Of a DNA stretch of 64,000 nucleotides, positions 39,761 to 62,428 are shown in pieces (the stretch's first letter is position 1; each line of letters starts with the position of its first letter). Source of the stretch: a virus. The translations under genes and the position numbers were made by a program. The notes under the pieces are model-generated. The model was not told the origin of the DNA and searched no databases. It saw only the letters and a list, made by a program, of their open reading frames with translations. The stretch covers positions 16,706 through 80,705 of IMG/VR virus record IMGVR_UViG_3300025853_008930. The stretch is one strand, 5' to 3'.

Positions 39761-40113
39761 TTCTTACCCACCTGTCTGCCTTCTCCTGAAAATGGATTAT
39801 ATGGAATATTTCTCGCTTTTCTTCTAGCCCTCATAGGCATTGAGTTAGTTTTATTACCTGCCATTCCAAACCCTACCTTTTTTCCTTTTCTTTGCTTAGT
39901 TTTACCCTTTGGTTGTGGTTGTCCAAAACTAGGTGAATCTGTTACATTACCAAACTCTTCTTCTAGTTCTTGCATTTCTGCATCTCTAACCTTTTTAGAA
40001 CTTCGTCGTTCAACCCCAAGTTTCTTTTTTTGACGGTCATCTATTTTCCTTTCTATTGCTCTCAACCTACCTTCGGTAAAATATGGCTTTTTTAGTATAT
40101 CTTGCCAAGTCAT
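39757..40113 (-). CDS. W-tag basic protein (MTWQDILKK)
   Basis: ORF track; motif. Confidence 0.6.
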   Translation of the reverse strand: MTWQDILKKPYFTEGRLRAIERKIDDRQKKKLGVERRSSKKVRDAEMQELEEEFGNVTDSPSFGQPQPKGKTKQRKGKKVGFGMAGNKTNSMPMRARRKARNIPYNPFSGEGRQVGKK

Positions 40114-40217
40114 TTCTTACCACCTGTAACAAAACACTTCTTTGACTTTGCCTCTTTCTCATCAACTTCTTTTGACTTTGCATCAAACCACTTATCGAGA
40201 TAACTACACCTTGTCAT
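40110..40217 (-). CDS. 35-aa microprotein (MTRCSYLDKWFDAKSK...)
   Basis: Hand-translated; same GGTGAATAATATGACA start context as its neighbours. Confidence 0.5.
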   Translation of the reverse strand: MTRCSYLDKWFDAKSKEVDEKEAKSKKCFVTGGKK

Positions 40218-40218
40218 A

Positions 40219-40569
40219 TTATTCACCTTCGGGGCCATAATCTCCTACATATCGAGCAAGTCTTAAAATTTCTTCAGCCACATCTCTAGCCTCAAATTCC
40301 AAACCTGCTAATTTATCATAGAACTCTATTATTTTATTCTCATCATAATCTCTATTATCCCTGTTGTAGTCTCTTACTTTTTCAAAGAGTTTTATGTAGT
40401 AATCTCTTGCGTCTACAGCCGGATTTTTTTCGTGCATTTCCATTAATTCAAATTTTGTTCTCACTAAACCTCTTATTAATTTAGACCTTGAGTCCATAGA
40501 CCTTTCTCGTCTATCAATTGCATCTCCTAAATCTTTTCTTATTTCGTCTTTCCATGTCATATTATTCAC
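40219..40569 (-). CDS. W-tag protein (MTWKDEIRK)
   Basis: ORF track; motif. Confidence 0.6.
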   Translation of the reverse strand: MNNMTWKDEIRKDLGDAIDRRERSMDSRSKLIRGLVRTKFELMEMHEKNPAVDARDYYIKLFEKVRDYNRDNRDYDENKIIEFYDKLAGLEFEARDVAEEILRLARYVGDYGPEGE

Positions 40570-40716
40570 CTACTGTAATTTTTTCAACATTAGTGCCGCT
40601 TTAGAACAAACTTTCCTTAGTAGGTCTGCATCATACATATCTTGTTTACTTGCATCCTCTAAATAATCTATCACATGCTCAAGCCCTTTTTGTTTAATTA
40701 TATCTTCCCATGTCAT
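40570..40716 (-). CDS. 48-aa W-tag protein (MTWEDIIKQK...), missing from the ORF track
   Basis: Hand-translated; GGTGA SD upstream. Confidence 0.65.
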   Translation of the reverse strand: MTWEDIIKQKGLEHVIDYLEDASKQDMYDADLLRKVCSKAALMLKKLQ

Positions 40717-40758
40717 ATTATTCACCTTTTATTTTAAACGCTTTTTTCAAAAATTTTT

Positions 40759-41136
40759 CTAGGATTTTTTTCTACCGGCTTCTTTCATTTCATCACGATA
40801 TTCAAATAGAGTTTCCTGTATTGCTTTTTCTATTGCTTGTGTTATTTTATAAAAGCGATTATTAGGGAATGAAAAACCCACAACAGGGTAGGCTTCAAAC
40901 TTGTCTGCAAAATAAAGATAGGATTTATGTAATATCTCTCGTATATTTGCATAATCTAAATAATCAACCCCATCAACTATCTCAAAGGGGGTTTTTTCAT
41001 TAAGATTATAATGTTCTCTACCATCAAAAATAATACTTTTCGCCTCTTCTCGGCTCATTGAACCACCCGCCTTTCTTCTAGCATCTATGTTTTCACTATG
41101 CTCACTCGTTTTTTTAACGGTATCTTTCCAATTCAT
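40759..41136 (-). CDS. W-tag protein (MNWKDTVKK)
   Basis: ORF track; motif. Confidence 0.6.
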   Translation of the reverse strand: MNWKDTVKKTSEHSENIDARRKAGGSMSREEAKSIIFDGREHYNLNEKTPFEIVDGVDYLDYANIREILHKSYLYFADKFEAYPVVGFSFPNNRFYKITQAIEKAIQETLFEYRDEMKEAGRKKS

Positions 41137-41255
41137 TCAAATTCAACTCTTTTTTCAAAAAATGTGGCGGAATTTTTGTAGCACTAGCGTAAAATTTTTT
41201 TTTATAACTATTGTATTTCCAGAATAAAAGTTATACTATTCATTATTAATCATGC

Positions 41256-41612
41256 TTAGTTATAATCAAATAAACTAGTATTCTTAGTTTCTTTAACTTC
41301 ACCCTGCATAGTTATTTTATGCTTGGCTTTAACATCTCTAATGTATCTTAGTAGTGTGTTTAACTTAGTTTTAAGCCCTTTTAACTCACTATCCAATTCA
41401 TCAGTATATTCATTACCCTTAGTTTGAGTTTCTTTAAGTAACTCTCTAAGTTTTTGTGATATTGTATTTAGCCTTGATAATAAGCCAAAGTCAATATCCT
41501 TACTAATGCAACAACCTCCTTTGAAGGGTCGTAGTAATATAAGGGTAATAAATGTAGTAGTTTTATGGGTTAATATGTTATACACAGTAGTTAATAGGTC
41601 AAAATTAACCAT
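41256..41612 (-). CDS. Hypothetical coiled-coil protein (start uncertain)
   Basis: ORF at the strand switch. Confidence 0.35.
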   Translation of the reverse strand: MVNFDLLTTVYNILTHKTTTFITLILLRPFKGGCCISKDIDFGLLSRLNTISQKLRELLKETQTKGNEYTDELDSELKGLKTKLNTLLRYIRDVKAKHKITMQGEVKETKNTSLFDYN

Positions 41613-41747
41613 GAATGCTTATATTATTCAAAATTAACAAAGAAAAAAATTTTGGAACAAAGCCATATGGTTGTAGAGCAACCGATTAACAAGCATATGG
41701 TTCACTTTGCGGAACCCGCCATATATACTTTACAGGAATGAGTAGTC

Positions 41748-42131
41748 ATGTCACTGAACATAGTATATCAAAGAAGCATAAAAGAGGAGAACGAAGACAG
41801 TATTGAGATAAGTTGCTGTAAAGAAGGCAACGAATATTGGGCATATGCCTTAAAAGTCCTTACTTCAATAGCCAACAAGTCAAACACACGGCCACACATC
41901 TATTTTGATTGGGGAAAGAGTAGTAAATGCACCATGAGAGTAGCGGGTTCTTGGAATGCCGAAAGCATGAGTAGTTTCCTAAGAAAAGCATCAAGCAAGA
42001 GAGCAATCGAAAGCGGTCTTTTCAATGGTCGCAGAACTTGGGTTTTCAATCATAAAACTGAAGAATACGAGCGAGTGAATGAAGAAGATGTAGATGCTTT
42101 ACCTAGAGATACCTACGCTATGATGGAGTAG
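41748..42131 (+). CDS. Cassette 1 hypothetical protein
   Basis: ATG about 25 nt after the TATA-like element of the repeat. Confidence 0.65.
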   Translation: MSLNIVYQRSIKEENEDSIEISCCKEGNEYWAYALKVLTSIANKSNTRPHIYFDWGKSSKCTMRVAGSWNAESMSSFLRKASSKRAIESGLFNGRRTWVFNHKTEEYERVNEEDVDALPRDTYAMME

Positions 42132-42140
42132 ATAAATACG

Positions 42141-42190
42141 GTTAAAAAAACCCTGCAAGGTTTCGGCCTTGTGGGGTTTTACCTTTTTTT
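42141..42190 (+). terminator. Hairpin + T-tract terminator (family also at about 42925, 43688 and 47021)
   Basis: GGTxAAAAAAAC-stem-loop-GGTTTTACC followed by T-run. Confidence 0.75.
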
Positions 42191-42315
42191 GGTCAAGGTT
42201 TGGTGCTTACGCTACGCTCTAAATTCATTATATAAATTACATTTATTATATGAATTTACACCAAACCATATGGTTCACTTTCGGAACCCAGAATATATAT
42301 CTTCCATCAAGGAGT

Positions 42316-42520
42316 ATGTGTCTAGCCGGCATAATAGACAAGAACAGACCGGAGTTAAGCGGCCTATCGGCTTAACACTATGGCCTAATGACGAGAGGAA
42401 ACTTGGAATAGAGGTAAAGTGGCTAGAAAAACATGGCGATGGATATGAACGCCCGTATCTAACAAATCAAGTGTTTTTTGCAGGACTAGGGGATATAGGC
42501 TCTCCCCTAGTCCAAGTTTT
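42316..42520 (+). ncRNA. Cassette 2: putative small structured RNA
   Basis: Promoter and terminator but no convincing ORF; tctagcc/ggctaga (42321/42421) and gttaagc/gcttaac stems. Confidence 0.4.
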
Positions 42521-42626
42521 TTTATCGAGGTTTGGTGTCGTTATATATTATAACGGTGAATGTGACACCAAACCATATGGTATGCTTTCAATACCCGTTT
42601 CATATAGTTGTATAGTAATAGTATGC

Positions 42627-42914
42627 ATGTCAGTAGTACAAAAACCGATTAGGCCTAATATTGAAGATTACCAAATTGATAGTGAAAATGATTGGATTGA
42701 AACATTTTGGAGAGATATGGAAACATATAACAATGAAATGAGATTGTGGAATTTTCGCCAACAGTGGTTAAGTGAATATGGAGTAACTGAAGAAATGTGG
42801 ATTCAAACACCTGTTGAACTTCAGCGAATTATGGTCGAGTTACATCATGAATGTGAGAAGCAAAATCAACTCATGTATGACCTTGAGGAATGGCGTGACT
42901 CAATGCCCATTTGA
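42627..42914 (+). CDS. Cassette 3 hypothetical acidic Trp-rich protein (start MSVVQKP)
   Basis: ATG placed after the repeat promoter; the longer ORF-track start crosses two boundary elements. Confidence 0.65.
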   Translation: MSVVQKPIRPNIEDYQIDSENDWIETFWRDMETYNNEMRLWNFRQQWLSEYGVTEEMWIQTPVELQRIMVELHHECEKQNQLMYDLEEWRDSMPI

Positions 42915-43084
42915 GGCATTAGTCGGTCAAAAAACCTCCCTTGCTTTCGGGCTTGGGAGGTTTTACCTTTTTTTATTGAGGTTTGAGGTCGTTTTAATTA
43001 ACTTACTAGATAGTAACCTCAAACCATATGGTTCACTTTAGGAACACGAATTATATATTATATCTATATTAGAGGGTAGAAAGA

Positions 43085-43495
43085 GTGATTAAAATGGTGT
43101 GCGAAGAATGTGGAAGAGGATTGAGATATAATACAGAAAGCGGTTTATGTAGTATGTGCATGAATGATTTAATAGACGAGACGCTAGAGCGTTTTATGCA
43201 AGAAGAGTATAAGGCAGAAGGCGAAAAGGTGTTTAAATGCCCTAAGTGTAATCGCTTAGACTGTATTCAAGGAGACTTTGTTTTGAATGATTGGGAAGAG
43301 TTTAAACCTATACTAAAACCGACAAATACTGATATGTGGTGTCAATATATGTATAAGGGTAAAATGGTTCAAGGTAACACTTTACTGGATGAAATTCAGG
43401 AGTTAAGAATGGAATGCAAGTATTGTGGATATGACTTTGACGGCCAAGACGACGAACTTAACAACAACACAGTTATTACTCATGGAGGTGTCTAA
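43085..43495 (+). CDS. Cassette 4 multi-CxxC Zn-binding protein
   Basis: CEEC, CSMC, CPKC, CKYC. Confidence 0.65.
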   Translation: MIKMVCEECGRGLRYNTESGLCSMCMNDLIDETLERFMQEEYKAEGEKVFKCPKCNRLDCIQGDFVLNDWEEFKPILKPTNTDMWCQYMYKGKMVQGNTLLDEIQELRMECKYCGYDFDGQDDELNNNTVITHGGV

Positions 43496-43497
43496 TA

Positions 43498-43680
43498 ATG
43501 ATAGTAATAACAGGTTGGGCAGTTTGGGATAATGAGGCATGGAGGACAGATTTTCGGAACATATACCCCACAAAGGAACTTGCTATGGAAGCGGCTAAAA
43601 AGCATTATAGTTACTTAGGAGACACAGAAGAAGACTATGGCGACCACATGATAAGTCCGGTTGAAATAACGGTTCATTGA
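43498..43680 (+). CDS. Cassette 4 second small protein
   Basis: GGAGGTG SD; followed by a terminator. Confidence 0.6.
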   Translation: MIVITGWAVWDNEAWRTDFRNIYPTKELAMEAAKKHYSYLGDTEEDYGDHMISPVEITVH

Positions 43681-43837
43681 GTTAAACGGTAAAAAAACCC
43701 CTTGTTTTTAGGAGCAAGGGGTTTTTACCTTTTTTTTATTGAGGTTTGAGGTCGTTTTATACTTATTACTGTTAGTAACCTCAAACCATATGGTTCACTT
43801 TCGGAACTCGGATTATATATCGAACAGGGTGGAGTAT

Positions 43838-44312
43838 GCATGTCGGGAGTCATGAACCGGCAGGGATTGACCGAACACCCTATTGAACGGGGGTAAGGTG
43901 CAATGTTCCGAGTAGTTTCGGCTTATGTAATTATGATGCTCTAATGAGTGAGTTTTTACCTCTAAGAAAAAGTCCTTGAACCTCAAAAGGGGAGTTATTA
44001 CTAGTAACTTGGATAACATTGGCAGTATGGCTCTTAAGAATCAAAGAATCAAGAGAGCGTTCAAAGTGAGTGCGACCCAATCGTATCATACTTGAAGATA
44101 CCCAACTCTTCATCCCATCCTATTCCAATGGCTATTAGTGGCCATAACACCATTGAGAAACAAAGGCGAAAGTCAAAGTTGAAAATGTAAGGCGGCAGAA
44201 AATAGAAAGAGATTGTAAGTTATCTAAATACTAGTTAGTTAGTGACCTCTCATCAAACCTACTAAGCATCACGCATTCCCTTGCTTTGAACGAGTAGCCG
44301 GAGTTTCTCACT
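43838..44312 (+). ncRNA. Cassette 5: putative ~470-nt structured non-coding RNA
   Basis: No sizeable plus-strand ORF between promoter and T-tract; nested 5'/3' pairings. Confidence 0.55.
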
Positions 44313-44460
44313 TTTTTTATCGAGGTTTGGCATCGTTATTATTATGAATTACTTTACCTATGGTAATGCCAAACCATATGGTTCACTTTGAGAACACGGT
44401 TCTTATACCGAATCATAGGTAGTAGTCGCTTCAAGGGGTTGAAGTGTAATTATCATTGAG

Positions 44461-44946
44461 GTGAAAATTATGAATTTGGAAAAACTAGAAACTAATAGAA
44501 ATAACATACGAACATGGATGAAGGAAAACGAAAGCCCGCTTAATGATGCTTTAGAGGGTCTACTCACAGCATCGGAGTTGGCTAAAACTGATGATGAGGC
44601 GGTCAAGTATTGGTCGTCAATTCGTTCACTTTGTGGCAACATGAGTCCTTCTCCTGTTAGAAAAGGTGTGCAATCAAAATACAGTGTCGAGCAATTGGCA
44701 GTATTAGACGCTATTGGAACAGAAGTTGATGAGGCTTCTGTCCGCTACCACAACGACGGTATTATGTCTAAGGTATTGTTTTCTCACGGTAAATCCGGTG
44801 GAAAAACTATGCTTGCAGAAGTATTTGGTAAGACTATGAGAAATATGACCATCAGCAAACTTAAGAAAAAGTTAGATGCAGGAATATGGGATGGAACTCT
44901 AGCCGGTTTAGACTCCTTGACCGAAACAACGGAGGATAATGAGTGA
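44461..44946 (+). CDS. Cassette 6 protein, WDGT paralog family member 1
   Basis: YWSSIRSLCGNM.SP.RKG ... GIWDGTL. Confidence 0.75.
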   Translation: MKIMNLEKLETNRNNIRTWMKENESPLNDALEGLLTASELAKTDDEAVKYWSSIRSLCGNMSPSPVRKGVQSKYSVEQLAVLDAIGTEVDEASVRYHNDGIMSKVLFSHGKSGGKTMLAEVFGKTMRNMTISKLKKKLDAGIWDGTLAGLDSLTETTEDNE

Positions 44947-45185
44947 TTAACATTTCAACCCCTTGTTGCCCCCACTCCCGATTAGGCCGAATAGTGAAAC
45001 TACTCTTACAGTGCAGTAAATAAGCACTTCTTAAGAGATTTGAAAAAATAGTTTCACTATTCGGTCTAAGTTTTTTTATTTAGGGTTTGATGCGGCCTTC
45101 GGCCTAAATGTTTAAAGAACATTTCATCAAACCATATGGTTCACTTTAAGAACCCGATTGATATATCTATTGGCATGGAGATAAC

Positions 45186-45533
45186 ATGCGAAAAATAACA
45201 CAAGACGCAATAAGAGCATTTGAACAGCATAAGAAATTTAAGCGAAGCAATACCGAAGTTGAAGTAAGTGGAAGCGGATTATTTGCCGAACTAAAACTAC
45301 ATGGGAATACAATCGCCAAAAGTGGAATATTTGAAGGTTTGATGATTTCATCAGCCGGATGGAATACCAACACCACAAAAGAACGCTTAAACGGATTTGA
45401 TGGAGTTCACATCCATCAAAAAGACTTCACATGGTATTTGAATGGCCGTGAATGGACAGGCGAATGGGTTGATGTTGATGATTTCACCAAACACGGCCAT
45501 TATTGTCAATTCGTTGGCGGAACATCATTCTAA
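45186..45533 (+). CDS. Cassette 7 hypothetical protein
   Basis: LHGNTIA...AGWNTNTTKERLN; promoter and terminator present. Confidence 0.7.
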   Translation: MRKITQDAIRAFEQHKKFKRSNTEVEVSGSGLFAELKLHGNTIAKSGIFEGLMISSAGWNTNTTKERLNGFDGVHIHQKDFTWYLNGREWTGEWVDVDDFTKHGHYCQFVGGTSF

Positions 45534-45754
45534 TTATGAACTGATATAGTTTGAGGACTATAACTGCCTTTCTCGACCCTTCGGGGTCGGGATTGGCTTT
45601 TTTTGGGGTTGTGAGTAATGTATTTTATAATACTAGGGGAGTATTACTCACAACCATATGGTTCACTTTGAGAACTTGATTCATATACTATTAAGGAAAT
45701 AGTAGTTGCTTCACGGGGTATGAAGTAAACTTACAAACATCGGAGTGATAAAAA

Positions 45755-46264
45755 ATGATGGAATATAGTAAAATAATTAGCAAAACAGACGATATATTGA
45801 CTTGGCTTGATGTCAATGATGCAGGTGCTTTGGATAGTGCCATTCGAGGCATCATTGCAGTTGCTAGAGTCGAAGGACAGACAGAAAAACAATACGGTAA
45901 CTATTGGGGTAGTATTCGCCAAATGTGCGGCAACCTCCCAAACTCACCTATCCGCAAAGGAACTCAACCGTCACTACCTGTCGAAGCACAAGCGGTTGTG
46001 GATTCTGTAATGACTCAAGTAACAGATGCTTTTGCGGGTATTACTGAAAACACTGGACTACTTCTTGAAGTTATCCTACCTTTCAGAAATACAACCGGCA
46101 AAGGCTTTGAGTCTATGGATGACCTAGCCGCATATATGGCAGGTCGAGCCCGTGATGCATTAATTAAGGCTCATAAAGATGGTCGTTGGGATGGAACTCT
46201 TAACGACGGACTAACAGGTATGACCCCTCCTCAACCTGCATCAAAGAAGGAGGCTAGTAAGTAA
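45755..46264 (+). CDS. Cassette 8 protein, WDGT paralog family member 2
   Basis: YWGSIRQMCGNL.SPIRKG ... GRWDGTL. Confidence 0.75.
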   Translation: MMEYSKIISKTDDILTWLDVNDAGALDSAIRGIIAVARVEGQTEKQYGNYWGSIRQMCGNLPNSPIRKGTQPSLPVEAQAVVDSVMTQVTDAFAGITENTGLLLEVILPFRNTTGKGFESMDDLAAYMAGRARDALIKAHKDGRWDGTLNDGLTGMTPPQPASKKEASK

Positions 46265-46519
46265 GGCTAACCGATTACCCCGTGTTGCCCCTCTACTAAA
46301 TTAATTCAACAAATAGCACCCAAAGGACATTACAACTCATACAGTCAAGAGAGTTCACGACTTCTTATGAGATAGTAAAAAATAAAGTGTCCTTTGGGTG
46401 TCTATGCTTTTTTTATGCAGGGTTTGAGGCGTAGAATAATATTCAACAAAAGAATGTGCCTCAAACCATATGGTTCACTTTCGGAACACAATTGATATAC
46501 GCCTCGACCTATAGATACC

Positions 46520-46792
46520 ATGACGGTAATAGATTGGCATGAGCAAGTAAGAGAATACAAAAAACACTATGATGATGATGATGGGATTCATGAATATATA
46601 GAAGGGTTACTCCCTGTATATTTCGGTGACATCAACCAAGTATATCATGATGAGATAGGAACACCTCTCAATATTGAGATTGAACCTCATCATGTCGGCC
46701 TTGAGTTTTGGCGAATAATGATAGGTCATATTTTCGAGGAATATGTTGAGAAATTCTTAGAGGCTTGGCATGAAGTAGAGGAGGAAGAGTAA
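46520..46792 (+). CDS. Cassette 9 very acidic small protein
   Basis: D/E-rich, 90 aa. Confidence 0.65.
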   Translation: MTVIDWHEQVREYKKHYDDDDGIHEYIEGLLPVYFGDINQVYHDEIGTPLNIEIEPHHVGLEFWRIMIGHIFEEYVEKFLEAWHEVEEEE

Positions 46793-47011
46793 ATGATACC
46801 GAGATGGAACGACGAAGTTTATCCGGTAATATCTTCCTTAGACGGTTTCAATAATTCAGCAATTGAAGCGATATGTAGCACATACAAAGACGCAAAAAAT
46901 TATGTTGCTAAATTAGAGAGTAGAGAGGCGTTAAAGGGTCTTGAGTTCGCTATCCTATGCTTCGACATAATAGAATGCGGGGAAATAGTAGACAGTAAAA
47001 TACTGGAATAA
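46793..47011 (+). CDS. Cassette 9 second small protein
   Basis: Coupled ORF followed by a terminator. Confidence 0.6.
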   Translation: MIPRWNDEVYPVISSLDGFNNSAIEAICSTYKDAKNYVAKLESREALKGLEFAILCFDIIECGEIVDSKILE

Positions 47012-47129
47012 ATCACACTCGGTCAAAAAAACCGGCTATCTTTCGGGGTAGTCGGTTTTTACCTTTTTTTCGAGGTTTTGTGCAGTTATTATTTATTTAA
47101 CCCCTTGACAGTTGCACAAAACCATACCA

Positions 47130-47650
47130 CATTATAACCATAAGCCTTCACTTGGTAGCAACAATTACTACCCAAGATTCCCACACCCTCGATAATATTA
47201 TTTTCAATTGAGTGTATAAATAATGAAAATAATAATAAAAATATCAATATCATATACTATATAATAGTAAGAAAAACATTATTTTGGGTCAGCAGGAGGA
47301 GTGAAAATAAAAGTGAAAATAAAATTCTTGAAGGTAAAGGGGAATAACTGTGAAGTTATTATATAATAAATATATTATTTTATTATTTTATTATTTTCAA
47401 TACTACTCTCTTTCTTCCCTCCCCTCCTCGATTTTTACTGTCAAGATTCTTGAGGGTTATTTTCCAAAGGATTTTTTTTCTCTCTCGGAAGCAGGGCAAA
47501 ATAATGAAAATAACAAAATATTAGAGCAGTTGCCCGTTTAGCGTTCAAAATAATCTAAAAATAATCCAAAATAATAACTTGAGTTGGCAAAGTTCATCTA
47601 AATCAAAATAGAAATAAAGGCTTTCTTTAAATGTAATTTAAACGGTAGGA
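47130..47650. other. AT-rich non-coding region with many AAAATAA repeats; candidate replication origin
   Basis: Multiple (G)AAAATAA copies in both orientations; upstream of the helicase gene. Confidence 0.4.
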
Positions 47651-47656
47651 TAAAAC

Positions 47657-48127
47657 ATGGAAGAAGATAAATGGGAAAATATCAAATTAGATGTAGTTGA
47701 ATACCTAGAATCGGGGGCAGAACTTTCTGTTGGATTGAGGCAAGTAATAGAATTAAACTTGCAGGTTGGAGATAATGACGAAAAGGCTAGAACAGGTGTG
47801 CTTAAATCATTGAAAGCGTTGCTAAGTGGTAAGGAAGGAACTCCTTTCCACAAGGGTAACAAGAGCGACCTCCCTGCTAAGGTGAGGGTCAATGTGCAAA
47901 AGTTAGGTAAGATAATGCATGGTGCTTCAATGGCATATATGGAATATGACGAATTGATGCAACTCATCACACCACGACATAAAAAATCCGGTGGTGGTTT
48001 CTATAAAACTCACAAAGAGTTCGCTAATGCTAATAAGAAGAGACTGATGACGAGGCTCAAAAAAGAATATCGTTTAGGTCTGTGGGATGGAACAATAGAT
48101 GGTTTATTGCCTCTTGAAGAAGAGTAA
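47657..48127 (+). CDS. WDGT paralog family member 3 (divergent)
   Basis: LSGKEGTPFHKG, KSGG, GLWDGTI. Confidence 0.7.
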   Translation: MEEDKWENIKLDVVEYLESGAELSVGLRQVIELNLQVGDNDEKARTGVLKSLKALLSGKEGTPFHKGNKSDLPAKVRVNVQKLGKIMHGASMAYMEYDELMQLITPRHKKSGGGFYKTHKEFANANKKRLMTRLKKEYRLGLWDGTIDGLLPLEEE

Positions 48128-48175
48128 TGTCACTATAGGTCATTTTTAGCCCGTCGGCATCCATCCGAGTCGGCC

Positions 48176-48370
48176 TTTATATAGTCAAGGGGAGGGAGGA
48201 GGCAATCGGGTCACTCGGTGACTCACCCCCCAACCGTAACTTGAGTAGTGAATCTACTCGACTTACGCTCACGGTTGAATTAGTTTAAAGCAAGGGGCAA
48301 CAAAGAAGTATATCATTTGATATTACCATGTTTCGGGGGGAACATGCGATGCTTAACTAATTCAACCACC
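48176..48370 (+). ncRNA. TATA box followed by a multi-hairpin RNA/leader
   Basis: TTTATATA at about 48177; stems gagtag/ctactc and ggttgaattagtt/aactaattcaacc (13 bp). Confidence 0.45.
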
Positions 48371-48389
48371 TCACACTCCCCAAATAAAA

Positions 48390-49835
48390 ATGGTGATAAA
48401 AATGATAAAAGGAACAATAGAACAAGATGAAATATGGAATGAAATAACAAACACAACCAATGATGTAATAGTCAATGCCGGTGCAGGAACAGGTAAGACT
48501 TTCACAATCGTAGAAGGTGCTAATAGAGCAAATGAAGTAAGAAAGGGTTTTCTATGCTTTAACAAATCTATTCAAACCGAACTACAAGAAAGACTACCCG
48601 AAGGTGTAGAGGCAAAGACATTTCACGCATTGGGTATGAAAGCAGTTAGAGATGTAGTTGGTAAAACTAAAGTAAACAATTGGAAAGTAAAGAATATCAT
48701 TGATACTATTCTAGGCCGTGACTATCACGCACAACCACTTGTCAAACTAATTAGTCTAATCAAAGGCTCAATGGTTGATTGCACTAACGAGCGAGAAATC
48801 TACAAATTAATTGATGAATATAATATTCAATTTCACGATGACCGAGAAGAAGCACTAGGTGTTAGCGTTGTTTGTCAAATACTTGACGAATGTAAATCAA
48901 TCACTCATGAAATTGACTTCGATGATATGATTTGGCTACCACTAGTCAATGGTTATCCTCTACCACAATTTGATATTCTATTCGTTGATGAAGCACAAGA
49001 CTTCAATGAAATGCAAAGACAACTAGTTTTGTCATGCACTAAAAACGGTAGATGTATTATTGTTGGTGACAAGAATCAAGCAATCTATGGCTTTAGAGGA
49101 GCAGATAGCGGTAGTATTGCTATCTTCAAGAATCAACTAGAAGCAAGAGGTAAAACTGTTGTAGAGTTTGGTTTGACTCTAACATGGAGATGTCCTAAGT
49201 TAGTGGTTGCAGAAGCAAACAGATATGTCAAAGACTTCAATTGTTTAGAAACTGCTGAAACAGGTAATGTTCATGTTAATGCGTATCTAAACCCACAGAA
49301 GGGTGACATGGTATTATGCAGATATAATGCACCATTAGTTAGTGCATTCTATGACTTGATTACTCAAGGTAAATCAGCATATATTCTAGGCCGTGACATG
49401 CACAAAGGTTTGGTAAACTATGTCAAAAAGATTACCAAGAACGAAGGTATGTCATCCGAGGAATTTTGCGAACTACTTGAAGTAAGTTATAATGCTGAAT
49501 ATGCTAAGTTGCTTAAGGCTGAAAAGCAAAACCAAGCAAACACACTTAGCGATAAATATGAATGTATCAAGATATTTGCTAGTAAGGCAAACTATGTTGG
49601 TGGCATTATCAAAGAAATCGAAAAACTGTTTAACAGTAAAACAAGAGGCGATATTAAATTATCAACTGTTCACAAGGCTAAAGGTCTTGAGGCTGATAAT
49701 GTATTCATCTTAGCAACTGAAAGAATGCCACATCCAAAAGCATCTAATATGCAAGAGGAAAGAAACATTTGTTATGTTGCTATAACAAGGGCTAAGAAAA
49801 ACCTATATTATTGTGGCCCAAGACCAAAGAATTGA
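48390..49835 (+). CDS. UvrD/Rep-like superfamily 1 helicase
   Basis: AGAGTGKT, VDEAQD, VGDKNQAIYGFRGA, STVHKAKGLE, YVAITRAK. Confidence 0.93.
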   Translation: MVIKMIKGTIEQDEIWNEITNTTNDVIVNAGAGTGKTFTIVEGANRANEVRKGFLCFNKSIQTELQERLPEGVEAKTFHALGMKAVRDVVGKTKVNNWKVKNIIDTILGRDYHAQPLVKLISLIKGSMVDCTNEREIYKLIDEYNIQFHDDREEALGVSVVCQILDECKSITHEIDFDDMIWLPLVNGYPLPQFDILFVDEAQDFNEMQRQLVLSCTKNGRCIIVGDKNQAIYGFRGADSGSIAIFKNQLEARGKTVVEFGLTLTWRCPKLVVAEANRYVKDFNCLETAETGNVHVNAYLNPQKGDMVLCRYNAPLVSAFYDLITQGKSAYILGRDMHKGLVNYVKKITKNEGMSSEEFCELLEVSYNAEYAKLLKAEKQNQANTLSDKYECIKIFASKANYVGGIIKEIEKLFNSKTRGDIKLSTVHKAKGLEADNVFILATERMPHPKASNMQEERNICYVAITRAKKNLYYCGPRPKN

Positions 49836-53995: not shown

Positions 53996-55162
53996 ATGAA
54001 GAAAATAGAAATTGAAATAAGAAAGCCGGATGATGGAGCCAATTATTATACGACTTATGTAAAGTCCGACCTGCTACGCTACAGTAGAAATAAAACTGTA
54101 AACCCTGATAGGTCAGCAAAAGACCCTTTACATGGAGCGTTAAAGACTATGTTCAAAAACATACTAAAACAACCTAGAACGAATAGATGGGGTTACACTA
54201 ACAAACTAAACTATTTTGGTGAAGGTGATTTTAGTGGAGTATTTTGGATAAAAGAATGTCCAATTGCCCTATCAAGAACCAATGGTAAATTTAGAATAAA
54301 TGGTAAAGCAGAAAGTATGGAAACTATCGCCAATGCTTTTGCTAGAGTTGCATTCAAATCTTGCTTTAGTGATGATAATTCTCAACTAATGCAGACCTTA
54401 TTTACTTCTCTAAGTCTTAGTGAAGATATTAAATATGTATTAGAAAATAGAGTTCCTTATCATTACTTTAGAGATTTTGAAAAGCAAGAAGTTAGACTTA
54501 ATGTTGCTCAAATAGGTGACAAGGAGTTTGCTATTGAAATTGGTGATGGGGTGTGGGGTAATATCTCAATGAAAGATTTACAGTCATTTTGTAACTACTA
54601 TATTCATGGTAAGAAGAATAGTAAGTTTAGAAGAATGGGCCTAAAAAGACTATACGAAGCACTAGTCGGTAGAGAACCACTAGACTCGGACATTAAAGTT
54701 ATGAGGGAGTTTCTAGCACAAAACAGAACCGAAGACCTTATTGAGAATAGAGCCAAAGAACTGTTAAGAGACATCACTAAACAATATCCTAATAGAATTA
54801 AACTAATAGAAGATGAAAACAACGAACCGGAAACAATGTATATTGCAGGTAATGAATACGATTGGAAACTATCTAATAGCAAATACAAGAGCGACATACA
54901 AATGGTATCTACTTTTGTTAGACAGAAGCGAGATATTATTGTTGATGATGAAACCACTAAAGAAGAGTGGTATTGGAGTGGGCCAATATGTATAGATAAT
55001 ATGGCTAGAGGTTCTTCACTAGGCGACCAATTCGCAACTAGGGCATTTGCTCTACTTAATGATAATATGACAGTAGCAAGAGTTAGCACAATTAAAGGCT
55101 ACTTAAAATACAAACCAAATGAAAATGAAAGAGTGGATATAAATGAAATGCATGGAGTGTAA
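53996..55162 (+). CDS. Hypothetical protein within the Ubl module
   Basis: Likely start MKKIEIEI; C-terminal GPICID motif. Confidence 0.6.
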   Translation: MKKIEIEIRKPDDGANYYTTYVKSDLLRYSRNKTVNPDRSAKDPLHGALKTMFKNILKQPRTNRWGYTNKLNYFGEGDFSGVFWIKECPIALSRTNGKFRINGKAESMETIANAFARVAFKSCFSDDNSQLMQTLFTSLSLSEDIKYVLENRVPYHYFRDFEKQEVRLNVAQIGDKEFAIEIGDGVWGNISMKDLQSFCNYYIHGKKNSKFRRMGLKRLYEALVGREPLDSDIKVMREFLAQNRTEDLIENRAKELLRDITKQYPNRIKLIEDENNEPETMYIAGNEYDWKLSNSKYKSDIQMVSTFVRQKRDIIVDDETTKEEWYWSGPICIDNMARGSSLGDQFATRAFALLNDNMTVARVSTIKGYLKYKPNENERVDINEMHGV

Positions 55163-55979
55163 TGGAACACAATTTGAAATGGATGAAAGAATGGGCGAAC
55201 TATCTTGTATAGATTGCGGCTACATAGCAGTAACAGAACTGTTTGAACAAACAACCTTGCCTGTTAATAAAGATGGTGAGTTTATTCATTCTGCTGATAA
55301 GTTATTGGGGTCAAGAACAAACCACAACGAAAAGGCGTGGCTTAGAAATTCTAATCACCATTTAGAGAAAGGGCTTAGAATGTGCAATATGTTATTGGCT
55401 ACATTGATGCCTAATCATCCATTAAAGGATAGAGTAGAAGAGTGTTATATCTCTCTTTATAGAAGTAACACTCTTACTACTTTAGGTGTTGAAGAAAAGG
55501 CAACTGCTGTTGTATATTATGTTCTAAGAGAAAACAGAACACCTGTATCTCTTAAAGAGTTAAGGCAAGAGTTTTCTTGTAATACTAGAACATTAAATCA
55601 AGCAATAAAAAGAATCAACAAGCATTTCAATAATGTAAATGCCTATACTAAGATTGACCCGCATTATATGTTAAAGACGGTTACAAGTAAAATTACTGAT
55701 GACTTAACATTTGCATCTAAATGTCAAGATGTGTTAGAATTATTTGAGCCTCTAACACAAAATGTAGATTGTGTAAAAGGCACAGTATATTATTCTAGTA
55801 TTTGTTGGATTGCCAAGAATATTTACTTGCATCCAATAAAACAGAAAGAGATTGCAGAAAAGGCTAATGTGTCTTTATCTTCAATTAAACTAACCACAAA
55901 GAAACTGTTGGCTTTGATTGGTTATGAAAAATGCTCTCAAGTGAGAGGTAAACAGATAAATGAATTAAGGAGAAATTAA
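55143..55979 (+). CDS. tfb: Transcription factor B (TFIIB) homolog
   Basis: N-terminal CxxC...GEL.CxxCG Zn ribbon and two cyclin-like repeats ending in an HTH (QKEIAEKANVS). Confidence 0.85.
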   Translation: MKCMECNGTQFEMDERMGELSCIDCGYIAVTELFEQTTLPVNKDGEFIHSADKLLGSRTNHNEKAWLRNSNHHLEKGLRMCNMLLATLMPNHPLKDRVEECYISLYRSNTLTTLGVEEKATAVVYYVLRENRTPVSLKELRQEFSCNTRTLNQAIKRINKHFNNVNAYTKIDPHYMLKTVTSKITDDLTFASKCQDVLELFEPLTQNVDCVKGTVYYSSICWIAKNIYLHPIKQKEIAEKANVSLSSIKLTTKKLLALIGYEKCSQVRGKQINELRRN

Positions 55980-60895: not shown

Positions 60896-62428
60896 ATGAT
60901 AGATTGGAAAATGATGAGCCGGTTGTTAGAATCCACGAAGGGAAAGACACCAACAAAACAAGTAAAATTGATAGCAACAGAACTAGATAAGTTCGATACA
61001 CATAAGAGCGCAGTAATACAATTACTTGCTAGAGAATATCCTAACAATAACATTGGTTTGGCTAAGGCTAAGTCTTGGCTTGCTAAGATGTTTGATTGTT
61101 TTGATGATGAGATAGAAAGCCTATTCGCTATTGATGATGAATTGGGAGAGGCTATCTATATGTTAGATACAAGTGCAGAAACAGAACGAAACATAAGTAT
61201 AACTTCTGTCTTAAGAGTTTTAGAAACTAATTGTGGTGCTGTAGACGATTCTTCTTATCTCTTAGTTAAAGATGTATTATCAAATATGTCAGCATTAGAA
61301 AGAAGGTGGTTTGTTAGATATTGGATTCGTTCCCCTACTAATGGAATAGACGAAGGAGTAGTTAAGAAAGTATTAGCAAAACATTACGATAAGAAACTAA
61401 GTGAAGTTAAGAAACATGCTAACTTCAATACCTTGTATAATGTTACCATGTATTATGAAATGAAAGAAGACCCTCCGTGTAATTTATCACATGGTTCTTT
61501 TGTAAAACCAATGCTAGCAAAGGAAGTTCTTATGAATAAGTGGCCGGAAAATAAGATAGTAGATTACAAGTATGATGGTAACAGATACCAAATACACAAA
61601 CAAGGAGATAATGTAATTATTTTTAATCGTAAAGGCTCTATCGTTACTCCACAGTTTCAAGATGTCGTAGAGACAGTTAGACAGTATGAAGTAGATTGTA
61701 TTCTTGATGGTGAGATATATCCAATTAAGGATGATGGTTCACCTGCTGAACATAAACTAATGGGAACAAGAGTTCATTCTAAAGACCACGCAGAAGCAAG
61801 AGAGAGGGTTAAAGTCAAGTGGGTTATATTTGATTGCCTTAAAATCGGTAATGAAACTATAATGGACTTATCTTATAGCGATAGATTAGGTAAGTTTTCG
61901 CAACTCCCCGACCAAGCACATAGAATGGAAGAGGGCGGTGATGTTCTAGCATTCTATAATAGAGCGATTAACGATGGTTTTGAGGGCATTATTGTCAAAG
62001 ATACTAATTTACCCTATGAGGCAGGTAAAAGAAGCGCAGGATGGGCTAAATACAAGCCTCCTCGCATTGAATTAGATGTGGCTATTACTACTGCTAAATA
62101 TGGCGAAGGCTCAAGAGCAAATGTGTTTGGAACTTTTGGTATTTCTGTAAAGAGTGATAGTGGTTTCAAATCAGTAGGTTCTATCGGAACGGGCTTTAGT
62201 GATGCTGATTTAGTTTGGCTAACTAATGAACTTAGAAAGAATGTAGAGACTTACAACAATGGCACATACAATTTATTACCGAGAGTTGTCTTAGAAGTAT
62301 CAGCAGACTTAGTTACTCAAGATGCAAAGGGCAACTATGGATTAAGATTCCCACGATGTAAAAGAATACGGCATGATAAGTTTGTTGCTGATATAAATAC
62401 AATAGAAGATGTGGAGAGACTACTATGA
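60896..62428 (+). CDS. lig: ATP-dependent DNA ligase
   Basis: KPMLA, YKYDGNR, LDGE, IFD, EGIIVK, WAKYK, LRFPR. Confidence 0.95.
   Translation: MIDWKMMSRLLESTKGKTPTKQVKLIATELDKFDTHKSAVIQLLAREYPNNNIGLAKAKSWLAKMFDCFDDEIESLFAIDDELGEAIYMLDTSAETERNISITSVLRVLETNCGAVDDSSYLLVKDVLSNMSALERRWFVRYWIRSPTNGIDEGVVKKVLAKHYDKKLSEVKKHANFNTLYNVTMYYEMKEDPPCNLSHGSFVKPMLAKEVLMNKWPENKIVDYKYDGNRYQIHKQGDNVIIFNRKGSIVTPQFQDVVETVRQYEVDCILDGEIYPIKDDGSPAEHKLMGTRVHSKDHAEARERVKVKWVIFDCLKIGNETIMDLSYSDRLGKFSQLPDQAHRMEEGGDVLAFYNRAINDGFEGIIVKDTNLPYEAGKRSAGWAKYKPPRIELDVAITTAKYGEGSRANVFGTFGISVKSDSGFKSVGSIGTGFSDADLVWLTNELRKNVETYNNGTYNLLPRVVLEVSADLVTQDAKGNYGLRFPRCKRIRHDKFVADINTIEDVERLL

Follow-up and report, generated by a model that had tools for sequence, protein, structure and literature searches.

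Twin-hairpin junctions between small gene cassettes in an uncultured ocean virus that probably infects archaea

We analysed a window of 64,000 nucleotides (positions 16,706 to 80,705 of the 80.7-kb IMG/VR record IMGVR_UViG_3300025853_008930) and focused on an array of nine small accessory units, here called cassettes A to I. Each unit consists of a putative promoter with a TATA-like box, a cargo of small genes or probably of RNA, a GC hairpin with an oligo-T run as putative terminator, and a large hairpin that ends in a palindromic core. The coordinates of all the features are listed in Table 1. The cargo genes are mostly ORFans, and the gene of cassette G matches Pfam Kyano_Gp96. Cassette E contains no conserved ORF, so its cargo is probably a non-coding RNA. 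Downstream of the array lies post156, a conserved paralogue of the genes in cassettes F and H. It sits just upstream of the helicase in most clade loci that hold this stretch, and is absent from L044, L049 and a few others (L-numbers denote the loci of the relatives compared in this study). Its predicted fold is all-alpha with no known relative.

Table 1. Features of the cassette array and the adjacent post156 gene. All coordinates refer to the 64-kb window and all features are on the plus strand; promoters and terminators are inferred from sequence.
Feature	Coordinates	Small hairpin and TATA	ORF or cargo	T-run	Large hairpin	Core	Remarks
Array start	41630-41700	5-bp hairpin GGTTG/CAACC 41669-41683			none	CCATATGG 41663-41670; half core CATATGG 41694-41700	A-rich tract, then ACAAAG, before the first core; single copy per genome, conserved across the clade; between the leftward gene 41256-41612 and rightward cassette A
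Cassette A	41694-42273	small hairpin; TATA 41721	leaderless ORF 41748-42131 (127 aa, no family)	42184-42190, with GC hairpin	42197-42267	42266-42273	
Cassette B	42266-42580	GGTTC-N7-GAACC 42272-42288; TATA 42293	short uncertain ORF from 42316/42318	42517-42523	42529-42574	42573-42580	
Cassette C	42573-43031	variant GGTAT-N7-ATACC 42579-42595; TATA 42602	ORF 42627-42914 (95 aa)	42968-42974	42980-43025	43024-43031	5' arm of the small hairpin differs from the usual one so that pairing is kept
Cassette D	43024-43793	TATA 43051	ORFs 43085-43495 (136 aa; weak sub-threshold zinc-ribbon matches) and 43498-43680 (60 aa)	43730-43737	43743-43787	43786-43793	
Cassette E	43786-44381	promoter present	no conserved ORF; probably a non-coding RNA	present	44324-44375	44374-44381	3' half conserved, 5' half variable
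Cassette F	44374-45139	TATA 44403	about 65-nt leader; ORF 44461/44470-44946 (F/H/post156 family)	45071-45077	45084-45133	45132-45139	
Cassette G	45132-45661	TATA 45161	leaderless ORF 45186-45533 (115 aa, Pfam Kyano_Gp96, E 8e-18)	45598-45604	45607-45655	45654-45661	
Cassette H	45654-46473	TATA 45683	about 70-nt leader; ORF 45755-46264 (169 aa, paralogue of F)	46408-46414	46421-46467	46466-46473	
Cassette I and array end	46466-47125	TATA 46495	ORFs 46520-46792 (90 aa) and 46793-47011 (72 aa)	47064-47070	47074-47123	CCATACCA (half core only)	last large hairpin
post156	47657-48127		conserved paralogue of F and H				just upstream of the helicase in most clade loci that hold this stretch

First of all, we re-examined the array as it had been described from the sequence alone, and the observation held in full: all nine hairpins, the nine CCATATGG cores and both terminal half-sites are present, and every arm sequence and coordinate given was exact. 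The stems of the large hairpins are 9-13 bp and the loops 23-53 nt, and each hairpin follows a T6-8 run. The first eight run into CCATATGG, whereas the ninth runs into CCATACCA. When folded as single-stranded DNA, the ten stretches gave z-scores of -3.5 to -6.2 against dinucleotide shuffles. The core CCATATGG occurs 9 times in the 64 kb against 0.66 expected, and all copies lie between 41663 and 46473. The longer motif is found nowhere else in the 80.7-kb record. Two further features had not been described. The first element (41694), which lacks a large upstream hairpin, is preceded by another complete core and a 5-bp hairpin. This core-hairpin-core doublet starts the array in all relatives, with the consensus AAAnAAAAAnnTTnnAACAAAGCCATATGGTTGT in 30 distinct relatives. 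In addition, a second, small hairpin lies downstream of each core.

To place the virus, we examined its gene content. The structural module comprises a terminase, a portal, a prohead protease and a capsid protein, and the replication cluster contains a GroEL gene, two ligase-domain proteins (ATP-dependent ligases) and an SF1 helicase. The relatives are marine contigs of 90-96 kb. This gene content matches the published description of magroviruses, which are tailed viruses of marine group II archaea with a chaperonin in the replication cluster and genomes of 65-100 kb (PMC5434244). The record is therefore described here as a magrovirus-like tailed virus, on the basis of gene content. The record also encodes a TFIIB-like protein with a zinc ribbon (Pfam, E 7e-6), an HTH and a weak NF001658 match (E 2e-6, far below the cut-off). 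An A/T-rich TATA-like hexamer lies 23-27 nt before the ATG in six of the nine units, and a shared AGTA-like motif sits at the expected start. The TFIIB-like protein and this spacing fit an archaeal host, although the host, the promoters and the transcript ends all remain inferences from sequence.

Next, we asked how widely the junction is distributed. About 50 relatives share the same arrangement of a hairpin, ACCATATGGT, and a second hairpin with a CTTTG loop. The palindrome CCATATGG was the top repeated 8-mer palindrome in every clade locus with enough upstream DNA and in none of 23 distant loci. A covariance model of the element returned 53 matches, all in arrays of clade loci and on both strands, and none in 16 distant loci. 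The element is mirror-symmetric on both strands and sits between tandem, convergent and divergent units. The distance from the core to the loop motif varies from 4 to 10 nt. In the more distant clades the junctions share little beyond the core, yet the units still differ in order and orientation. Our literature search found no paper describing this element.

We then quantified the covariation of the hairpin arms. The 24 distinct hairpins used were 99.1% Watson-Crick paired, against 72% for shuffles and 32-47% for slid partners. All five variable pairs change on both sides, there was 1 G-T in 216 cells, and no conserved bulge was seen. Of 65 distinct hairpins, 60 had at least 7 perfect base pairs. 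Among internal mismatches, wobble pairs (13) were no commoner than A-C (11). Since G-T pairs are almost absent and the hairpins lie outside the inferred transcripts, after the T-run and before the TATA box, this is a DNA feature. An RNA-level signal in read-through transcripts, such as a processing site, a terminator or a stabiliser, was also considered, since these are hairpins between genes and archaeal oligo-T termination can be leaky. The scarcity of G-U-type pairing, the position of the hairpins and the mirror symmetry of the element all speak against this reading, and we regard it as very unlikely.

A purely regulatory role was considered as well. In this view, the core would be an operator for a dimeric regulator or an upstream site for the virus TFIIB-like factor, the shuffling would be only a by-product of repeated sequence, and the hairpins would be incidental. 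The core does lie about 60 nt upstream of each inferred start and between divergent promoters at the array start, the TFIIB-like gene is encoded nearby, and an 8-10 bp palindrome suits a dimer. However, the element also sits between convergent units that have no promoter on either side, the spacing between core and loop motif varies, and the covariation shows that the pairing itself is kept. We consider this reading unlikely.

The order and content of the cassettes were then compared between close relatives. A fixed gene order, or gains and losses that do not break at the CATA core, had been named beforehand as grounds for regarding the element as only a repeated terminator/promoter module. 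The order is not fixed: at least five cassette orders occur among strains whose shared cassettes are mostly 87-100% identical (G alleles are about 70-80%). The breakpoints are not confined to CATA. Overall, 36% of similarity breaks lie within 30 nt of a core and 75% within 120 nt, so that they cluster at the junction modules but are spread over them. The large hairpin assorts independently of both flanking cassettes, and hairpin types combine with up to 6 left and 6 right cassette types, so exchanges happen on both sides of it. For example, B is followed by one hairpin in the window and another in L120, and G likewise in the window and L121. One relative, L009, carries a hybrid small hairpin, which implies a crossover inside its loop. 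In a strain pair that is 98-100% identical, the replaced segments begin inside an ORF and about 22 nt right of the core: in L120 versus L126, identity breaks about 15 nt inside the G ORF, at its stop and terminator, and about 22 nt right of a core. Other breaks fall before the TATA box. A patch of gene G is 93-100% identical between genomes that carry it in opposite orientation, with the similarity limited to the ORF.

The sequence-only reading had interpreted the array as cassettes that enter and leave by crossover at CATA on folded single-stranded sites, and this interpretation was only partly supported. The arms do covary, the cassettes do differ in order and content between close relatives, and of the three analogies it offered (integron attC sites, HUH/IS200 hairpin ends and the promoter-stem-loop modules of T4-type phages) the last holds best. 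Crossover at a single point was not supported. Nor was a dedicated recombinase detected: a profile search with PF00589 (tyrosine recombinases) gave no match in the 80.7-kb record or in five relatives rated 100% complete, with positive controls, and PF01797 (Y1 HUH transposases) likewise gave no sequence-profile match in the record or in five complete relatives. No serine recombinase was found in this record. Nevertheless, one syntenic pair (L034/L036) has a cassette inverted exactly from core to core, and in the inverted configuration only the core and loop motifs are shared. A core-specific or microhomology event therefore cannot be excluded for inversions.

These observations bear on two further rivals. 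In the first, an unrecognised virus or host enzyme would bind the twin hairpins, as folded single strands or a cruciform, and exchange strands in the palindromic core, so that units would be excised, inserted and flipped as in integrons or HUH/IS200 elements. The conservation of structure rather than sequence together with an invariant core and loop motif resembles attC logic, units occur in both orientations, the L034/L036 inversion ends exactly at the two cores, breaks are enriched around cores, and the element marks unit boundaries even where no promoter is present. On the other hand, no tyrosine or Y1-HUH recombinase was found in the record or in five complete relatives and no serine recombinase in the record, many exchanges demonstrably lie elsewhere (on the 5' side of the large hairpin, in the small hairpin loop, before the TATA box and inside ORFs), and the hairpins lack the conserved bulges that orient attC sites. 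The inverted unit is only 73% identical while its flanks are 87-89% identical, so that inversion is old or imported. We consider this reading unlikely. In the second, the polymerase would stall at the hairpins, and the nascent end, which finishes in the core, would re-anneal to another core on either strand, giving deletions, duplications, moves and inversions without any recombinase. The palindromic core can pair in either orientation and is flanked by perfect DNA hairpins, the core-to-core inversion is compatible with such copy-choice, and compensated arm changes occur between very close hairpin variants with almost no G-T intermediates, as arm-to-arm templated correction would give. However, there is no direct evidence for template switching, and it explains neither the exchanges outside the core nor the conservation of the element; it is a remote possibility.

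Taken together, we favour the view, with a probability of roughly 0.6, that this is the accessory early-gene region of a magrovirus-like tailed virus, probably of marine group II archaea, in which autonomous transcription units are joined by a clade-wide junction module ([T-run]-[perfect DNA hairpin]-ACCATATGGT-[small hairpin with CTTT(G) loop]-[BRE/TATA]) and shuffled mainly by homologous recombination. What our comparison demonstrates is that the module is conserved in about 50 relatives and marks tandem, convergent and divergent unit boundaries, that its pairing covaries at the DNA level, and that relatives carry the units in different orders and orientations. The mechanism is inferred, as are promoter and terminator activity. 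In this view, the 20-100 bp shared by all junctions would give homologous recombination many points of exchange during mixed infection or between repeats of one genome, and whole units, hairpins alone, promoter halves or ORF segments could therefore be swapped. The invariant palindrome and the loop motif are most likely the site of an as yet hypothetical virus or host DNA-binding factor, such as a regulator or insulator of the early promoters. The hairpins, as cruciforms or folded single strands, may also make the joints break-prone, which is speculation. Several observations weigh against this view. Ordinary homologous recombination does not explain why the stems are kept perfectly paired, nor why an 8-10 bp palindrome is invariant across a clade whose helicases are only about 50% identical. 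The L034/L036 inversion leaves little homology for general recombination, and the junctions of the more distant clades share little beyond the core although their units still vary. The five complete relatives gave no Rad51-family match, so the recombination machinery itself is unidentified. It also remains conceivable, although unlikely, that the twin hairpin is the substrate of an undescribed structure-specific DNA enzyme or binding protein of magroviruses or their hosts. Such a factor would cut or pair cassette ends at the core, giving an archaeal-virus cassette system that needs neither a tyrosine nor an HUH recombinase and that can insert units in either orientation.

Magroviruses are among the most abundant viruses of ocean archaea, and nothing is known of their gene regulation or of how their accessory genes turn over. 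The array provides candidate early promoters and terminators for the whole clade, a clear case of DNA-level rather than RNA-level covariation, which is rare and points to a hairpin- or cruciform-reading factor, and a natural series of near-identical strains in which cassette exchange can be mapped to the nucleotide. If a dedicated enzyme exists, it would be a new kind of recombination or DNA-recognition system. If not, the array shows that the PeSL principle of T4-type phages arose independently in archaeal viruses.

We finally compared the array with known systems. The conserved boundary or linker sequences of lambdoid and other mosaic phages are likewise short shared intergenic sequences that act as preferred crossover points for module exchange by homologous recombination, but they are not known to be structured palindromes or to be repeated at every gene of an array. 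IS200/IS605 and REP/RAYT elements, which use HUH Y1 enzymes, share with the array DNA hairpins that carry a conserved short motif at the foot. In those families the hairpin sequence is the same in all copies, whereas the window alone has eight different stems among its nine large hairpins (two share arms) and close strains add many more; no Y1 transposase was found by the profile search. Integrons also hold arrays of small cassettes separated by sites in which structure rather than sequence is conserved, with a distinct, conserved first site. However, no IntI or any tyrosine recombinase was found in the genomes searched, the units have their own putative promoters and terminators instead of being promoterless and co-oriented behind one upstream promoter, in relatives they face both ways, and the hairpins are perfect, without the extrahelical bases of attC, with exchanges that are not confined to one point such as that in the R box. 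The closest system is that of the PeSL (promoter-early stem-loop) cassettes in hyperplastic regions of T4-type phages (Arbiol et al. 2010, PMC2839356; Comeau et al. 2014, PMC4122927). There, as is inferred here, small and mostly ORFan genes each carry their own promoter and terminator, the composite terminator/promoter motif is repeated at every joint, and recombination between the repeats causes gain, loss, replacement and reordering between close relatives without a dedicated recombinase. PeSL cassettes are further characterised by a strong early promoter, by non-essential genes and by mini-circles formed by exchange between neighbouring repeats. The present virus is not a T4-type myovirus of a Gram-negative bacterium, since its nearest terminase and helicase matches in cultured phages are only 22-33% identical and are to non-T4 viruses. 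Its host is probably archaeal, with an inferred TATA/BRE promoter and mostly leaderless mRNAs rather than sigma-70 promoters. Beyond this, its joints carry an invariant palindrome and two extra DNA-only hairpins that are not the terminator and whose stems vary between copies but stay Watson-Crick paired, the element is mirror-symmetric, and its units occur in both orientations.

The observation made in the sequence-only reading, an array of nine units joined by hairpins that run into a common palindrome, held when we re-examined the sequence. Nine large inverted repeats have 9-13 bp arms and 23-53 nt A/T-rich loops, and each starts 3-7 nt after a run of 6-8 T. Eight of them run into CCATATGG and the ninth into CCATACCA. 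When folded as single-stranded DNA, the ten stretches gave z-scores of -3.5 to -6.2 against shuffles. CCATATGG, which we call the core, occurs nine times in the 64-kb window against 0.66 expected, always inside the array, and the extended motif is absent from the rest of the 80.7-kb record. Two features had been missed by that reading. First, a second, small hairpin lies downstream of each core, in the form GGTTC-N7-GAACC and once GGTAT-N7-ATACC. Second, the array begins with a complete core plus a 5-bp hairpin, before the element that had been described as a terminal half-site. Across the window, short palindromes are otherwise extremely avoided: ACGT, AGCT, CGCG and GATC occur 0 times (61-206 expected), GTAC occurs once, and 41 of 64 palindromic hexamers are absent. 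This suggests heavy restriction pressure from the host. By contrast, CATATG is not avoided.

The window is most of an IMG/VR virus contig rated 86% complete. Transcription direction and GC skew switch at about 41.6 kb. To the left, on the minus strand, are terminase, portal, prohead protease, capsid and tail genes, and to the right, on the plus strand, are an SF1 helicase, a pyrimidine-dimer glycosylase, a ThiF-like protein, GroEL and an ATP-dependent ligase. Two separate proteins carry an ATP-dependent DNA ligase domain, one of which (849 aa) lies inside the structural, minus-strand module. There is also a virus-encoded TFIIB-like protein with a TFIIB zinc ribbon, an HTH (HTH_11) and a weak match to archaeal TFB (NF001658), which could redirect host RNA polymerase to the repeated promoters. 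A nucleotide search of cultured phages gave no match, and at the protein level cultured phages gave only 22-33% identical terminase and helicase matches. The gene content, the 90-96 kb size of complete relatives and their marine origin fit the published magroviruses, in which a GroEL gene sits in the replication cluster (PMC5434244). The archaeal host remains an inference from these features.

After the small hairpin comes an A/T-rich TATA-like hexamer, and in six of nine units the ATG follows 23-27 nt later, next to a shared AGTA-like motif. Units F and H have 65-70 nt leaders and unit D one of about 40 nt. This is the geometry of archaeal TATA promoters with leaderless mRNAs. We had first considered a sigma-70 promoter for the conserved block (TTCACT-N16-TATAyn), but this reading was dropped in view of the TFIIB-like gene, the fixed TATA-to-ATG spacing and the magrovirus-like gene content. 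The T-runs, preceded by GC hairpins, are the expected terminators. Both hairpins of the joint therefore lie between the terminator of one unit and the TATA box of the next, outside the inferred transcripts.

Coordinates of the array and of other features of the window
Feature	Position
Cassette array	41661-47125
Complete core at the start of the array	41663
Half element that follows it	41694
247-aa ORF spanning cassettes B and C	42171-42914
Cassette E region without a conserved ORF	43830-44312
Gene F	44461-44946
Gene G	45186-45533
Gene H	45755-46264
Non-coding, A/T-rich stretch	47120-47650
post156	47657-48127
TFIIB-like protein	55143-55979
Protein with an ATP-dependent DNA ligase domain	15467-18016
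Protein with an ATP-dependent DNA ligase domain	60896-62428

The cargo of the units is mostly small and without known relatives. A, C and I are ORFans, and D has only weak sub-threshold zinc-ribbon matches. B is a short doubtful ORF. The longer 247-aa ORF runs in frame through cassette B, its terminator, the hairpin, the core and cassette C, and is almost certainly an artefact of ORF calling rather than a gene. G matches Pfam Kyano_Gp96 (E 8e-18), a family named after T4-like cyanophages, so an accessory gene is shared between bacterial and probable archaeal viruses of the ocean. E has no conserved ORF (longest 20-30 aa in five of six relatives; the unit was compared among the window and the relatives L120, L121, L126, L091 and L009, where L numbers denote loci of related viruses). 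Its 3' 200 nt are highly conserved, with a long-range GAGAAAC/GTTTCTC pairing, while the 5' half exists in three unrelated versions, and it is probably a modular non-coding RNA. A search of positions 40000-49000 against Rfam gave only sub-threshold chance matches. F and H are paralogues and form a three-member family with post156, the gene between the array and the helicase. The family is present in 2-3 copies in many relatives, with one copy fixed upstream of the helicase in most. Its predicted fold is confident (pLDDT 93) and all-alpha, but we found no Pfam match, no PDB sequence match and no Foldseek match at E <= 0.001, and VIA-align gave only generic three-helix-bundle similarity at Z < 8. 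Between the array and post156/helicase lies a 0.5-kb, very A/T-rich stretch with several short tandem repeats (AGTGAAAATAAA x2, TATTATTT x3, TCAAAATAATC x3), which is a possible replication origin.

To follow the element across the clade, we fetched 79 loci anchored on the helicase. Every locus with helicase identity of about 48% or more and enough upstream DNA has 4-13 copies of CCATATGG as its top repeated palindrome, whereas none of the 23 more distant loci does. The general form is a structural palindrome, [GGT-stem ... CAAAG-stem-ACC]-ATAT-[GGT-stem-CTTTG ... stem-ACC], whose stems differ in every copy. In two clade loci, L065 and L028, the element lies between tandem units (T-run, element, TATA), convergent units (T-run, element, A-run) and divergent units (TATA, element, TATA). 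It therefore marks unit ends rather than promoters. The array always starts at one conserved site, ...ACAAAGCCATATGGTTGT. A covariance model of the large hairpin plus core found 53 matches, all in arrays of clade loci and on both strands, and none in 16 distant loci. A partial scan of 185,579 cellular genomes for the two-sided motif returned only single, scattered sites in unrelated bacteria, as chance predicts, and carries no information on hosts.

We next quantified the covariation of the arms and asked at which level it acts. We aligned 24 distinct large hairpins from the window and close strains, in which 99.1% of cells are paired, against 72% for shuffled partners and 32-47% for slid partners. 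All five variable pairs change on both sides, and only one G-T occurs in 216 cells. The selection step demanded seven perfect pairs, but only 5 of 65 distinct hairpins failed it, so the bias is small. Across the clade, own arms pair far better than arms of other copies, with at least 9 pairs in 9.8% against 0.4%. Among internal mismatches, wobble pairs (13) are no commoner than A-C (11). Very close variants differ by compensated changes, for example T-A to A-T between the loci L102 and L147. In unit C of the window, the usual 5' arm of the small hairpin is altered so that it pairs with its unusual 3' arm, whereas four relatives keep a mismatched hybrid. Taken together, Watson-Crick-only pairing, a position outside the inferred transcripts and mirror symmetry point to DNA pairing (cruciform or folded single strand), not RNA.

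A metagenome scan gave further close strains, which allowed us to examine whether cassettes move. The order of units is A-B-C-D-E-F-G-H-I in the window, D-C'-F-G-E-H-I in L009 and L119, n10-A-B-C'-F-G-E-H(-I) in L120 and L126, x-A-B-C'-E-F-G-H in L121, and n5-G-H-I-n1 in L137 and L157. Shared units are mostly 87-100% identical. The order is therefore not fixed, and on that count the sequence-only reading passes its own test, since it had named a fixed order as a result that would refute it. Nevertheless, the interpretation given there was only partly supported: crossover at the single point CATA was not supported, because the breaks are not confined to CATA.

First of all, the large hairpin assorts on its own. 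B is followed by one hairpin in the window and by the window's D hairpin in L120, L121 and L126, and G is followed by its usual hairpin in the window but by the C hairpin in L121, while C' carries the G hairpin there. One hairpin type combines with up to six left and six right cassette types. This needs exchanges both in the T-run/GAGGTT(T)G zone and in the CAAACCATATGGTTCACTTT zone. In L009, the small hairpin before C' is a hybrid of a generic 5' arm and a C-type 3' arm, so a crossover fell in its loop. Two near-identical strains, L120 and L126 (metagenome contigs CEWG01023017.1 and Ga0098043_1002204), map exchange points to the nucleotide. They are 98-100% identical over A, B, C', F and H but carry different G alleles and different E 5' halves. 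Identity runs through the F-G joint and stops about 15 nt into the G ORF. It resumes at the G stop codon, is perfect from the T-run through hairpin and core, and stops again about 22 nt right of the core. Between L035 and L048, which carry G in opposite orientations, a 298-nt patch limited to the ORF is 93-100% identical, so that this apparent inversion turned out to be a recombination patch and not a flipped unit. Overall, 36% of similarity breaks lie within 30 nt of a core and 75% within 120 nt, against about 10% and 40% if they were uniform, with secondary peaks at the terminator and at the start codon, although this count is descriptive because the pairs are not independent. This is the pattern of homologous recombination using the shared joint as portable homology. 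In this account, the cassette orders, the conservation of the element and the pairing of its arms were observed directly, whereas the host, the transcripts, the promoter and terminator functions and the route of exchange are inferred from sequence.

On the other hand, some observations do not fit simple homologous recombination. L034 and L036 are 87-96% identical in their flanks, but one unit is inverted exactly from core to core, and in that configuration only the core and the loop motifs are shared. The unit itself is 73% identical, so the inversion is old or imported. Four other inverted cassette pairs (L023/L065, L055/L060, L041/L057 and L017/L025) have unrelated flanks and so do not place breakpoints. 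Units of the same families face either way across the clade. Neither the invariance of the palindrome nor the maintenance of the stems is explained by recombination alone, and we therefore keep a structure-specific factor and copy-choice at the palindrome as live alternatives. Profile searches found no Phage_integrase, Y1_Tnp or Resolvase match in the record, and no Phage_integrase, Y1_Tnp or Rad51/RadA family match in five relatives rated complete.

Three magrovirus papers do not mention promoters, palindromes or hairpins, nor this element, and a literature search for the core sequence returned only primer sequences. By the membership criteria that we applied, the element is not an integron or an HUH element. 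The closest known system is the PeSL cassette of T4-type phages, in which terminator plus early promoter repeats mediate modular shuffling (PMC2839356, PMC4122927). The present element shares that logic, but it differs in host domain (here inferred) and promoter type, and in having an invariant palindrome with two DNA-only, covarying hairpins and free unit orientation.
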